DNA of 64,000 nt from Octopus sinensis. Its lineage: Eukaryota. Of the stretch, positions 3,005-63,310 are shown in pieces; the stretch's first letter is position 1; each line of letters begins with the position of its first letter. The notes under the pieces are model-generated. The model did not search any database. It was not told the DNA's origin and saw only the letters and a list, made by a program, of their open reading frames with translations. The DNA lies in contig NC_043002.1 of the NCBI RefSeq assembly GCF_006345805.1, forward strand, positions 13,516,001 to 13,580,000, in the 5' to 3' direction. The position numbers and the translations under genes were made by a program.

Positions 3005-3652
3005 TCTGCTCTAGGCACAAGGACTGAAATTTCGGGGAAGGGGGCCAGTCGATTTGAGCGACTCCAGTATGCAACTGGTACTTAATTTATCGACCGCGAA
3101 AGGATGAAAGGTAAAGATGACCGCGGCGGAATTTGAACTAAGAACTTGAAGACAGACGAAATACCTATTTCTTTACTGCCCACAAGGGGCTAAACACAGA
3201 GGGGACAAACAAGGACAGACAAAGGGATTAAGTCGATTACATCGACCCCAGTGTATAACTGGTACTTAATTAATCGACCCCGAAAGGATGAAAGGCAAAG
3301 TCGACCTCGGCGGAATTTGAACTCAGAACGTAACAGCAGACGAAATACTGCTAAGCATTTCGCCCGGCGTGCTAGCGTTTCTGCCAGCTTGCCGCCTTAC
3401 ATATATACACATATTTATTTCTTTATTGCCCACAGAGGGTGGGGCTAAATATAGAGGGGACAAACAAGGATTGAGTATGGGATTATGACGATTACATCGA
3501 CCCCAGTGCGTAACTGGTACTTATTCAACCGATCTCAAAAGGATGAAAGGCAAAGTCGATGTCGGCGGAATTTGAACTCAGAAGGTAACGGCAGACGAAA
3601 TATCGCTAAGCATTTTGCCCGGCATGCTAATGATTCTGCCAGCTCGCCTCCT
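3005..3652 (-). mobile_element. SINE family B cluster (one multimer plus one monomer)
   Basis: Reverse complement of ggcggcgagctggcagaaacg...gagttcaaattccgccgaggtcgactttgcctttcatcctttcggggtcgat; the body is repeated. Confidence 0.9.
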
Positions 3653-3656
3653 TACA

Positions 3657-3989
3657 TCTATATTCATAAATATGTAATGGTGTCTGTATGTGTTTGGGGT
3701 TACTCCTCCCACACCGTCCAGCCGATTTTAATGATTTTTGACACATAGGTAGATCACATAGCCCGAAGTTCAAATGAGGCCGGAATTTTTCGGAAACTCG
3801 ATAATGCTCAGTTGGCATCGATTTTTGTGAGCTCAATCGGACGTTTGAATGGAAATTCCCATAACGATGTTATTTTTCCTTCTTAATTGGTAATAGTTGA
3901 CACGGGGAACGTAGAAGATTTCAACGTAAGGTCAGAGGTGGGCTTAGCTTCAACACGGAAAACAGAGCAATGCCGGGTCCAACAGCTAA
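3657..3989 (+). mobile_element. Non-autonomous Helitron-like element
   Basis: 5' TC start (TCTATATTCATAAA). The 3' end gagcaatgccgggtccaacagCTAA resembles the hairpin+CTAG ends at 7418 and 9848. Confidence 0.6.
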
Positions 3990-4834: not shown

Positions 4835-5120
4835 GGAGGCACATGGCCTAGTGGTTAGAGCAGCGGATCGCGGGTTCGAATCTCAGACCGGGCGATGTGT
4901 TTGTTAATGAGCGAAACACCTAAGCTCCGCGCGGCTCCGGCAGAAGGTAATGGCGAAACTTCTGCTGACTCTTTCGCCACAACTTTTTCTCACTCTTTCC
5001 TCCTGCATCTTGCAGCTCACCTGCGACGGACCGGCGTCCCGTCCAGGTGGGGAACCTATACGCCGAAGAAACCGGGAAACCAGCCCTTATGAGCCAGGCA
5101 TGGCTCGAGAAGGAACAACA
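4835..5120 (+). mobile_element. tRNA-derived SINE with a V-domain-like segment
   Basis: A box tggcctagtgg, B box ggttcgaatct, body cctgcgacggaccggcgtcccgtccagg resembling the V-SINE domain, and an (AAC)n tail. Confidence 0.7.
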
Positions 5121-7662: not shown

Positions 7663-7707
7663 ATATATATGTATATATATATATGTATATCTAAATGTAT
7701 ATATATC

Positions 7708-8060
7708 TCTTATTATAAAAGGCAGATTTTATCTGCCTCCCTTTGGGAGTTATACAATCTACAATATAGGATTTCTTCAATTACAATTTACCTTGCATTT
7801 TTAAGAGTACAATGCATCGCGTCATGCCAGCTCCAGTTTTTAAATTTAAACTCCAGTTTAAGCAAAATTGCAGAAAACTCACATTCTGGTGTGTGTGTCA
7901 AATGCTTTTCTTAGTCTGGTTTACAGCACACGCAAACGCACACACACAGTGAGCAACGAATAAAATGAAAGTAATTGACTTACTGTAGTGAGTGATTCTT
8001 TCACTCTGCCTCCCACTTCCTCTTTCCACACAGACACGCAAATATATAATAAAATTGTAA
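7708..8060 (+). mobile_element. Helitron 5' module (partial copy of 6184-6460)
   Basis: Near-identical to the start of the 6184 element. Confidence 0.75.
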
Positions 8061-8208
8061 GCTAACGCGTGCGTGTGTGTGAGTGGGTGTTTGGGGGTGT
8101 GCGCGTGTGTGTGTGTGTGAGGGTGCGTGTGTGTGTGTGCGTGTGCGTGAGTGTGTGACAGGAAAGTTTTTTTACGGACTAATATAACCCTTATATCCAA
8201 GTAGCAGA

Positions 8209-8672
8209 AAGATAAGACAGTAGGTGTGATTTGAGGGAGATTTGGCTGCATTTCTACCATGGTCTAGCTGCATGTAGGGGTCTCCCTCATAGGCTCATAC
8301 ATACAATATATACATAGATAAGACAGTAGGTGTGATTTGGGGGAAATTTGGCTGCTATTTCTACCAGGTCTACTGCCATGTTGGGGTCTCCCTCATAGGC
8401 TCATACATACATATATACATAGATAATACAGTAAGGTGTGATTTGGGGGAAATTTGGCTGCTATTTCTACCAGGTCTAGCTGCCATGTAGGGGTCTCCCT
8501 CATAGGCTCATACATACATATATACATAGATAAGACAGTAAGGTGTGATTTGGGGGAATTTGGCTGCTATTTCTACCAGGTCTAGCTACCATGTAGAGGT
8601 CCCCCTCATTGGCTCATATATATATACATACATAAGACAGTAAGGTGTGATTTGAGGGAGATTTGGCTGCTG
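8209..8672. repeat. Minisatellite, ~105 bp unit, ~4.4 copies
   Basis: agataagacagta(a)ggtgtgatttgggggaaatttggctgctatttctaccaggtc...cataggctcatacatac repeated. Confidence 0.95.
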
Positions 8673-8751
8673 TCTCAGGTCTGTTAGGCCTTCTCATGTA
8701 AACTCAAGCTTTCTCATGCCTTGAACATAGACCAAAGCAGAGAATGTATTC

Positions 8752-8990
8752 TTTTATTCTTCTGCTTTTTCCAGCCATTGGTCTGTGGCCATGCTGGGGC
8801 AATGCCTTGAAGAATTGTAGTTTAATGAATCAACTCGTTTTATTTTTGTAAGCATTGTACTTATTCTATCTGTTTCCTTTGTCAAACCACTAGGTGACAG
8901 GGATGTAAACAAACCAACATTCGTTGTCAAGCAGTGGTGGAGGACAATCACAAGCACAGACACGCACACACCACACATACATGCATACAG
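8752..8990 (-). mobile_element. SINE family A, 3' half (diverged)
   Basis: gtggccatgctggggca...gtacttattctatc...gttgtcaagc. Confidence 0.75.
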
Positions 8991-8997
8991 ATATCAC

Positions 8998-9028
<31 letters not shown>

Positions 9029-9044
9029 TATGTGGTATATATTA

Positions 9045-9300
9045 TTGCAGCGTGGAAGGTGTTGTAGTAAGCCATTTAAGAAACACACAAAAACCGTTAC
9101 ATTCACTTCACATTTAAATTTAATTTGCCAAAATATTTTCGTCGCTTTGAGACCGCGACCTGTTCACTGACAAAATATCGTGCTAACAGGTCGCGGTCTC
9201 AAAGCGATGAAAATATTTTGACAAATTAAATTAAATGTTGAAGTGAATCTAACGTTTTTGTGTGTTTCTTAAATGGCTTATAAACACCTTCAACGCTGCA
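9045..9300. repeat. Fold-back element (~120 bp arms) in a TA tract, PLE-like remnant
   Basis: Arms are reverse complements (gcagcgtggaaggtgtt.../...aacaccttcaacgctgc) and carry an HHR-like motif. Confidence 0.85.
9124..9174 (-). ncRNA. Type I hammerhead-like motif, G3-C8 core variant
   Basis: UUUGUCA-GUGAACA-G-GUCGC(ggucucaaa)GCGAC-GAA-AAUAUU-U-UGGCAAA. Confidence 0.65.
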
Positions 9301-9459
9301 ACTGTTTTCGTTCCAGCACACGATCTCAGATCAATCCTTGCTATGCAAGTACTCTGCCCCTCATATATATTTACATATATATATATATATATATGTTATA
9401 TTGTAAAAACAGTAAGATAACAAGAAGAAAGAGACCTCATATTATGTAAATAGAGGAAA

Positions 9460-9848
9460 TCTTATATATAAAGTGAGGTTGTGTGTCTGTCTCCTACGAT
9501 TTAGATTCCTAACTACTCCCACATTTTGCGGTGCAGTTTAACCAAAACCGGGTATCTTATAGTCGTGATTCATATCGAGACCGTCTGGGTATTAGCGCGC
9601 GTCTACGATGAGTCTACGATTTAAAAAAAAATTACCATCAATTTTTCCCATTTTTAATCCATTTTTGACATATATAGGGAAGTAACTCTCTAAAATTTAT
9701 TATTAAATCTCAGAACGTAAAAAGCTACAGTAAACACCCCTCCCCCTTTGTGGTTAGCATATTGAGATGGCTATTATACTTTACATCTCTAAAAATGCTT
9801 ATATATTATTTCCCTTACAACCCGAGCAACGCCGGGCGATACTGTTAG
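9460..9848 (+). mobile_element. Short non-autonomous Helitron
   Basis: TC start, same body and 3' hairpin as 7028-7418, ends TTAG|T. Confidence 0.8.
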
Positions 9849-29950: not shown

Positions 29951-30274
29951 TGGTGTTGGGTGCATGTCTTCTTTCTTCTGTTCCCTGGCCTCTTCGATGT
30001 ATCGTCAGCGAGTGTCAGCCTGTGACTGACTGACTTGTCAAATTTTTCCCTTTAAATAATCTTCTACAATATTCCAGCGCCGATCAATAAATGAGATTTA
30101 TTTACGTTTAACAATTGAATGAATTTAATTAAAGCATTTAAATATGAAACATCAAAAAAAAATGTTCAAACTGAAGTCCGTCTCGAGCAACACTATTTTC
30201 TAAATGAATAAATAAAATGGAATCTTATGTATTTATGGAATTTGGATGACTTTTGGCCAACTCGTTATGCATAT

Positions 30275-30686
30275 ATTTCTTTATTGCCCACAATGGGGCT
30301 AAACATAAAGGGGACAAACAAAGACAGACAAACGGATTAAGTCGATTACATCGACTCCAGTGCGTAACTGGTACATATTTAATCGACCCCGAAAGGATGA
30401 AAGGCAAAGTCGACCTCGGCAGAATTTGAACTCAGAACGTGGCGACAGATGAAATACCTATTTCTTTACTACCCACAAGGGGCTAAACACAGAGAGGACA
30501 AACAAAGACAGACAAACGTATTAAGTCGATTACATCGACCCCAGTGCGTAACTGGTACTTAATTTATCGACCCCGAAAGGATGAAAGGCAAAGTCGACCT
30601 TGGCAGAATTTGAACTCAGCACGTAACGGCAGACGAAATACCGCTAAGCATTTTGCCCGACGTGCTAACGATTCTGCCAGCTCGCC
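30275..30686 (-). mobile_element. SINE family B dimer
   Basis: Two body units joined at gaaatacctatttc. Confidence 0.9.
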
Positions 30687-56928: not shown

Positions 56929-56972
56929 ACACAACGTTTCGGCTGATATACCTTCCAGCCTTCATCAGGTGT
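56929..56972 (-). ncRNA. Minimal type I hammerhead ribozyme, canonical core
   Basis: ACAC-CUGAUGA-A-GGCUG(10 nt)CAGCC-GAA-ACGU-U-GUGU. Family fragments at 19890-19952 and 57830-57880. Confidence 0.75.
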
Positions 56973-60853: not shown

Positions 60854-61745
60854 AAGGCGGCGAGCTGGCAGAAACGTTAGCACGCCGGGCGAAGTGCTTA
60901 GCGGTATTTCGTCTGTCTTTACGTTCTGAGTTCAAATTCCGCCTAGGTCAACTTCGCCTTTCATCCTTTCGGGGTCGATAAATTAAGTACCAGTTACGCA
61001 CTGGGGTCGATGTAATCGACTTAATCCGTTTGTCTGTCCTTGTTTGTCCTCTCTGTGTTTAGCCCCTTGTGGGTAGTAAAGAAATAGGTATTTTAATGCA
61101 CTTCATTGGTGCAAGCGTATTTATTTACATCAAATTGCATTAGGCGTGTCCATTTTTGCTTTAAAATAAAGTTCATTTATTTCAAAGAGGCTAAACCTAG
61201 AGGGGAGAAACAAGGACAGACAAAGGGATTAAGTCGATTATATCGACCCTAGTGTGTAACTGGTACTTAATCGACTCTGAAAGGATGAAAGGCAAAGTCG
61301 ACCTCGGCAGAATTTGAACTCAGAATGTAACGGCAGACGAAATACCAATTTCTTTACTACCCTCAAGGGGCTAAACACAGAGAGGACAAACAATGACAGA
61401 CAAACGGATTAAGTCGATTATATCGACCCCAGTGTGTAACTGGTACTTATTTAATCGACTCCGAAAGGATGAAAGGCAAAGTCGACCTCGGCAGAATTTG
61501 AACTCAGAACGTAACGGCAGACGAAATACCTATTTCTTTACTACCCTCAAGGGGCTAAACACAGAGAGGACAAACAAGGACAGACAAACGGATTAAGTCG
61601 ATTATATCGACCCTAGTGCGGAACTGGTACTTATTTAATCGACCCCGAAAGGATGAAAGGCAAAGCCGACCTCGGCGGAAATTGAACTCTGAACATAACG
61701 GCTACGCATTTCGCCCAGCGTGCTAACGTTTCTGCCAGCTCGCAG
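60854..61745. mobile_element. SINE B monomer (+, 60854-61090) and trimer (-, 61185-61745), tail to tail
   Basis: Family B sequence; the trimer has two conserved internal junctions. Confidence 0.9.
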
Positions 61746-63037: not shown

Positions 63038-63310
63038 TTGTTGTGTCTGAGAAGAGTCATTCTCTTTTGGTGCCTTATAATTTCACACACTCACCGGAAA
63101 AATTTCCACTTATTTTTTATTTTTATTTTTCTAAAATTTTCGTTGCGTCTTGCAACATTTTCAATAGTTTTGACCCAAAATAAAAAACAAAACAAGTGGA
63201 AATTTTACCGGTGAGTGTGGGAAATTATAAGGTACGAAAAGAGAATGACTCTCCCTAGACAAAACAGAATATGCTTCAACACTCGAACTCACATAAAGAA
63301 TCTTGCAAAA
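63038..63310. repeat. Fold-back of the U3-core HHR family, inserted in a minus-strand SINE A (62950-63655)
   Basis: Inverted arms agagtcattctcttt...cacactcaccgg; homologous to 39094-39937. Confidence 0.85.
63131..63167 (-). ncRNA. Minimal type I hammerhead-like motif, U3-A8 core variant
   Basis: CUA-UUGAAAA-U-GUUGC(aagac)GCAAC-GAA-AAUU-U-UAG. Confidence 0.6.

Follow-up and report, generated by a model that had tools for sequence, protein, structure and literature searches.

We analysed a stretch of 64,000 nucleotides of the Octopus sinensis genome (contig NC_043002.1, positions 13,516,001 to 13,580,000; hereafter the window). At 9124..9174 its minus strand carries a minimal type I hammerhead-like motif with a G3-C8 core, recognised from sequence, folding and a structural descriptor and comparable in architecture to the minimal hammerheads (min-HHRs) in the parts of PMC4209133 considered here. 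The core, G3 U4 G5 A6 A7 C8 A9 (GUGAACA), occupies 9167-9161 on the minus strand with the 3-8 pair swapped, and is the master state of about 6,100 copies. Helix I pairs 9174-9168 with 9130-9124 over 7 bp, including one U-G wobble. An additional G (9160) stands between A9 and 10.1, and helix II (9159-9155 with 9145-9141) is 5 bp long with a 9-nt loop. G12 A13 A14 (9140-9138) is followed by the palindromic helix III AAUAUU (9137-9132, A15.1 to U16.1) and by U17 at 9131, the last letter of a UUU site, and the predicted cut falls between 9131 and 9130, again on the minus strand. A preliminary description, made from the letters alone, had listed a helix I of 7 bp, a helix II of 5 bp, the GAAA, the AAUAUU and the UUU site; each of these is present, on the minus strand.

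Helices I and II form and helix III is a palindrome, which gives the motif a three-way junction. The literal consensus C3 U4 G5 A6 N7 G8 A9 is not matched, owing to G3 and C8. The relaxed core is complete, with a Watson-Crick 3-8 pair, U4 G5 A6 A9, G12 A13 A14, A15.1-U16.1, H17 and G10.1-C11.1. Our descriptor accepted any Watson-Crick pair at 3-8 and, at its strict level, helix II of at least 5 and helix I of at least 6 bp; at these helix lengths 9124..9174 was the sole match in the 64-kb window. Dinucleotide shuffles (n=60) gave 0 matches at any of three strictness levels. The 51-mer (9124-9174) had a folding energy of -13.2 kcal/mol (z = -2.1), and when two 51-mers were cofolded a plain duplex (-29.4 kcal/mol) was preferred over the double hammerhead (-24.2 kcal/mol). 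Rfam reported no hammerhead over the window at the gathering threshold, nor in 9000-9400 at E <= 10. Its miRNA matches at the locus were set aside, as they merely reflect a long hairpin.

Two further hammerhead-like sequences were seen on the minus strand of the window. At 56968 (motif about 56975-56928), next to a TTA repeat, lies a minimal type I hammerhead that has the canonical CUGAUGA and an additional nucleotide; its sequence suggests that it is probably the pseudo-LTR (pLTR) of another Penelope-like element (PLE) or retrozyme family. At 63164 there is a weak U3-A8 match with 3-bp helices in an apparent degenerate inverted repeat, which may be due to chance. The window also contains a SINE-like repeat of 184-255 bp in tandem, at 3186-3662, 30274-30642 and 61185-61702.

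The inverted repeat and its carrier

The motif is held in the left arm of an inverted repeat of 257 bp (9045-9301). The left arm (9045..9184, minus strand) is a 5'-truncated pLTR copy that begins 17 nt upstream of G3, reaches the first (short) 3' end at about +121 and adjoins a TA repeat. The right arm (9185..9352, plus strand) is an inverted pLTR copy without a hammerhead. It starts within the core, at A6 (9185), so that the 5' strand of helix I and G3-U4-G5 are missing, and it has T in place of C11.1 at 9208. It then passes through a tail of about 60 nt to the second (long) 3' end, continuing about 50 bases beyond the inverted repeat to a TA repeat. An ATG in this arm (9273-9275, plus strand) is, in tandem copies, in frame with the ORF of the element.

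The second arm had been described as offering UGACAAA, a fully Watson-Crick partner for helix I. The letters TGACAAA are indeed present, at 9219-9225 of the plus strand, and they display the usual fully paired helix I of the family, in which the wobble position is A in 62 of 70 arms and G in 7. As a helix I partner the arm does not serve: it has the opposite strand sense, lacks G3-U4-G5, has C11.1 changed and is complementary to the motif. For a transcript of the whole locus, a hairpin is predicted at -168.5 kcal/mol, which exceeds by 58 kcal/mol the stability predicted when the hammerhead helices are forced (-110.3 kcal/mol). Since the right arm is antisense and the long hairpin is favoured, the idea fails, and we consider it highly improbable that the two arms cooperate, with the second providing an active ribozyme with a flawless strand for helix I. 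The copy in the window is itself probably inactive, because the antisense arm is predicted to pair with the motif and sequester it.

Helitrons have a 5' TC, a 3' hairpin followed by CTRR, and ends that are fixed across copies. The inverted repeat lies within a composite repeat of about 2.15 kb (7706..9848, plus strand) that begins with TC and, in sister copies, terminates in a hairpin and then CTAG, as in a non-autonomous Helitron-like element. Between 53 and 58 of 58 loci match it throughout 7750-9800, and the matches fall away at both ends. The palindrome is thus best described, from the sequence, as a passenger within a Helitron-like repeat, which multiplied it. The composite repeat (7706-9848), which is young, has also captured a 106-bp tandem array (8210-8671) and a SINE-like piece (about 8850-9000). 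Our initial two genome searches yielded only this Helitron-borne subfamily; as all 58 loci belong to it, they were counted as one insertion event and excluded as evidence for conservation.

Copy number and core conservation

A 20-base pattern, left free at positions 3 and 8, was searched across the genome with the reversed pattern as control. The pattern gave 6,114 matches and the control 0. G3-C8 was present in 93 of 100 among the matches listed of the 6,114, and no C3-G8 was found among the 100 matches listed of the 205 that lacked G3. A sample unselected for the core was obtained by choosing 96 arms by a downstream anchor, 70 of which include the core. Conservation across copies had been set beforehand as the test on which the motif could fail, and the core was conserved: of these 70 arms, 69 have G3 and 67 have C8. 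The remaining core positions were canonical in the anchor-picked arms. Loop II differed among subfamilies, and stems and core did not. In contigs of eight sequencing runs under four organism labels, no core-position variant was present among those listed. At L122:7501 (also 7437, 7476 and 7503), A>G reached 7-29% in five runs that may be RNA vs 0.1-0.2% in three large unlabelled runs; the pattern resembles A-to-I editing of the hairpins that inverted pairs of pLTRs would form, with the runs coming from different individuals and their RNA status being a guess.

These counts indicate that G3-C8 is the master state of a family of about 6,000 copies. The identity across copies reflects a recent master rather than selection on each copy. 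Copies with G3 and without C8 numbered 375, and 100 of them that were listed had G (42), U (42) or A (16) at position 8. G8 was present in several subfamily backgrounds. Because G8 was commoner than a transversion should be and occurred in several backgrounds, mismatched G3·G8 templates may either recur or have transposed and spread.

The parent element

A long reading frame was found next to the motif. Locus L247 contains an unbroken frame of 1,042 aa followed by the motif, and inspection of motifs in P0001 and L247 against Fig. S2 of PMC8557442 revealed a single ORF with reverse transcriptase (RT), a cysteine linker and then a GIY-YIG endonuclease. In 21 of the 30 best endonuclease loci the motif followed on the coding strand, at a distance of about 870-1,140 nt downstream, with GUGAACA in all; 20 of the 21 passed the descriptor and one had a 1-base deletion, and three may be duplicates. 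The downstream flank fetched for the other 9 of the 30 contained no motif, and a relaxed scan of all 30 found no canonical hammerhead behind the ORF. Locus L412 is a complete pLTR-ORF-pLTR unit with G3-C8 in both repeats. In L412, as in tandem copies, the ATG of the pLTR is in frame with the ORF. The motif of the family is therefore located in the pLTR of a PLE, and further PLE traits, namely inverted 5'-truncated copies, an optional tail and microsatellite targets, were found together with the pLTRs.

The best database match of the element protein was an Octopus vulgaris protein (56%). Pfam assigned 0 families to the ORF, and a few homologs of the protein carry PF00078, PF01541 or PF26215. 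As in the Nematis and Neptune PLEs of Craig et al. (2021), in the sections of PMC8557442 compared here, the element combines RT, cysteine linker, GIY-YIG and a DK-S-G motif with TA-repeat targets, inverted 5'-truncated copies and an optional tail. By eye, the linker is closer to that of Nematis than to that of Neptune in the portion of Fig. S2 of that paper used. The parent is best described as a young Nematis-like PLE, a clade call made by eye from a short linker, with a tree that was built without reference Nematis and Neptune proteins. According to those sections of PMC8557442, canonical hammerheads are universal in PLEs with a C-terminal endonuclease; unlike these, the octopus family carries only the swapped hammerhead. 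Membership in Naiad, which has an N-terminal GIY-YIG and DKA and would explain missing hammerheads, was rejected, as the endonuclease is C-terminal and its motif is DKSG. A non-LTR retrozyme, with ORF-less head-to-tail units that each contain a hammerhead, was likewise rejected, as the window copy is a head-to-head pair and the family has an ORF of its own.

The link to the ORF also bears on whether the motif could be a chance hammerhead look-alike within a foldback DNA transposon (MITE). The 257-bp inverted repeat at the locus and the failure of Rfam to match a hammerhead would fit such an origin. It is largely refuted by the direct joining of the sequence to the PLE ORF at both ends, and the empty result of the 60 shuffles speaks against it too. 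The arms are moreover unequal, 5' ends vary between copies, 3' ends are bimodal, and the corresponding place in a sister family is taken by a hammerhead with C3-G8. We regard a chance origin as the least probable of the explanations considered.

Comparison with related families

The closest sister family, represented by protein P0002, is 56% identical to the element protein and groups with it at 98/97 in the tree, where one long-branch row intrudes on the grouping. The placement of L171, L172 and L191, which are short and long-branched, is unsure; L095 (no alignment) and L190 (below the length cut) were left out of the tree. The hammerhead of the sister family occupies the corresponding position and shares the extra G and U16.1-U17. 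Among the matches listed of 2,453, it has C3 in 95 of 100 and G8 in 100 of 100. The proposal that GUGAACA is the compensatory G3-C8 flip of C3-G8 was thus borne out by a homologous family that carries C3-G8. Position 9 of the sister hammerhead is C in 94 of 100 and A in 5, among the matches listed of 2,453. At L426:2575-2625 the sister motif has an imperfect helix III palindrome, and this family presents a high-copy natural A9C variant.

Four of the 14 closest metagenome loci have a motif behind the ORF. L143 (47% identical; motif at 4973) has C3-G8 with a U15.1-A16.1 flip, and L144 (46% identical; motif at 2497) has U3-A8 with C9. L147 has a canonical C3-G8 hammerhead, and L153 a weak A3-U8 candidate. 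No motif was found in the other 10 of the 14, of which 6 have less than 270 nt of 3' flank. Position 3-8 stays Watson-Crick in these relatives while the helix sequences change. With C3-G8 in the sister family and U3-A8 in the metagenome, the G3-C8 swap looks like a derived compensatory change, and the ancestral state was likely C3-G8, as suggested by few taxa.

Given the role of A9, a C at position 9 should lower hammerhead activity. The U15.1-A16.1 flip has low activity according to the part of PMC3088659 used here. The clade thus tolerates further core changes, C9 and U15.1-A16.1, that should lower activity.

Insertion ends

The ends of the 96 arms were measured from G3. The 3' ends were bimodal, with one group of 45 between +116 and +127 and another of 49 between +182 and +186. 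The 5' ends of 65 arms lay at -27 to -5, including 32 at -23 to -20. Helitron-borne replicas account for eight of the 96 arms, five of them at -17 and three at +3. Just 2 of 96 began at the predicted cut (+36), both at inversion junctions with microhomology. There is no genomic footprint of cleavage at the predicted cut, and this argues against activity.

For another PLE, two internal reverse-transcription starts are known to define a tail (PMC11167929); the tail is about 60 nt here vs 30-40 in that study. The ends suggest a similar course in the octopus element. Transcription would start just upstream of the motif, near -23, and reverse transcription would begin at two internal sites, some 125 and 184 nt downstream of G3. 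Uncleaved RNA would be copied in this way into thousands of inserts of 150-200 bp in TA-type repeats, often head-to-head. Cleavage, if any, would take place slowly or later, on tandem RNA, and insertion would not depend on it. The window copy would be one head-to-head insert that was then spread by the Helitron-like repeat. At L121:5265-5243 (minus strand), a stretch resembling a branch point and a pyrimidine-AG tract ends precisely where many inserts begin (about -23 from G3); it may represent either a start site or, suggesting an intron, a splice acceptor.

Discussion

In structure and place the motif resembles the PLE min-HHR, and its cleavage is putative. The min-HHR consensus, a type I hammerhead in the pLTRs of metazoan PLEs, was given by Cervera and de la Pena (2014, PMC4209133). 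In the parts of that paper considered here, min-HHRs share with the octopus motif the type I form, the extra nucleotide between 9 and 10.1, G10.1-C11.1, the palindromic helix III and an NUH site, as well as U-rich and AU-rich flanks, a pLTR position, and inverted and solo copies. An oyster entry there also has a UUU site. Unlike those min-HHRs, the octopus motif has G3-C8 in place of C3-G8, a 6-nt helix III palindrome and a 7-bp helix I. The sole 3-8 variant found in the same parts is U3-A8. Perreault et al. (2011, PMC3088659) list the natural core variants U3-A8, U15.1-A16.1 and A6C in the portion drawn on here; their set shares with ours a natural compensatory change at 3-8, which is U3-A8 instead of G3-C8. 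The final filter described there rejected core deviations unless they had been tested. No natural G3-C8 was found in the literature searched, and the large variant set of Lunse et al. 2017 may contain one. The motif is a genuine natural G3-C8 form of the min-HHR, which has become fixed in a young family whose frames are intact and whose sister family has C3-G8.

The same swap has been engineered elsewhere. In the PAc (Poseidon) PLE hammerhead, the C3G/G8C double mutant partly restores cleavage (PMC11167929), and C3G/G8C is partly active in other hammerheads, according to the portions of PMC8495972 and PMC3884650 that deal with it. The PAc hammerhead cleaves only with the protein of its element (PMC11167929). 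The octopus family is like PAc in its PLE context, in two internal reverse-transcription starts giving a tail, and in insertion that would proceed from uncleaved RNA. Unlike the PAc mutant, the octopus swap occurs naturally and is fixed in an element whose frames are intact, and it is known here from genomic sequence.

We are inclined, by a modest preponderance of the evidence, to regard the motif of the parent element as a ribozyme capable of slow self-cleavage, for which a second copy, by pairing of AAUAUU, and probably the protein of the element too would be required. The main alternative, less probable to us although a serious one, is that the motif is a hammerhead-derived fold without useful cleavage, its 3-8 pair and helices being retained at the start of the PLE RNA for a structural role or for protein binding, or else carried along with a successful master. 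Inserts that derive from uncleaved RNA are consistent with such a fold, and so are the excess of G3·G8 among copies that lack C8, C9 in the sister family and L144, and the flipped 15.1-16.1 in L143. PLE hammerhead mutants still insert in vitro, with no RNA ends at the cut (PMC11167929), and minimal PLE hammerheads cleave poorly in vitro in the experiments of PMC4209133 to which we refer. However, missing ends at the cut site were also reported for a PLE hammerhead that cleaves in dependence on its protein (PMC11167929). The restored 3-8 pair and the paired 15.1-16.1 flip are what selection on an active core geometry predicts, and all other core positions are canonical in the G3-C8 family.

The pLTRs that are joined to the beginning of the ORF fit a non-cleaving fold by their excess of G3·G8. 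Eight distinct ones were found, five with G8 (L408, L409-L411, L419), two with C8 and one otherwise changed; three of the five with G3·G8 look like duplicates, leaving about three independent events. The excess may mean either that catalysis is dispensable or that uncut tandem templates survived, the number being too small to choose between these. We also considered a more far-reaching proposal, that a PLE sub-clade with deliberately slowed hammerheads explored the four Watson-Crick 3-8 pairs, along with C9 and U15.1-A16.1, and that the G3-C8 ribozyme cuts tandem RNA in vivo so frequently that full-length copies come preferentially from templates with a disabled upstream ribozyme (G3·G8 in 5/8 vs about 3% genome-wide). 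It is speculative and, in our judgement, unlikely; if true, it would provide genomic evidence for what PLE hammerheads do.

A slow ribozyme, which remains our preferred reading, would be unsurprising as biochemistry, given the partial activity known for the engineered swap. Hammerhead descriptors have C3 and G8 hard-coded, so families of this kind, with about 6,000 copies in one genome, are missed by Rfam and by CUGANGA-based searches. A natural and fixed G3-C8 beside a C3-G8 sister and U3-A8 relatives would be evidence that it is the pairing, and not the identities of the paired bases, that selection maintains. These families would also provide naturally matched variants with which to ask what purpose hammerheads serve in PLEs.
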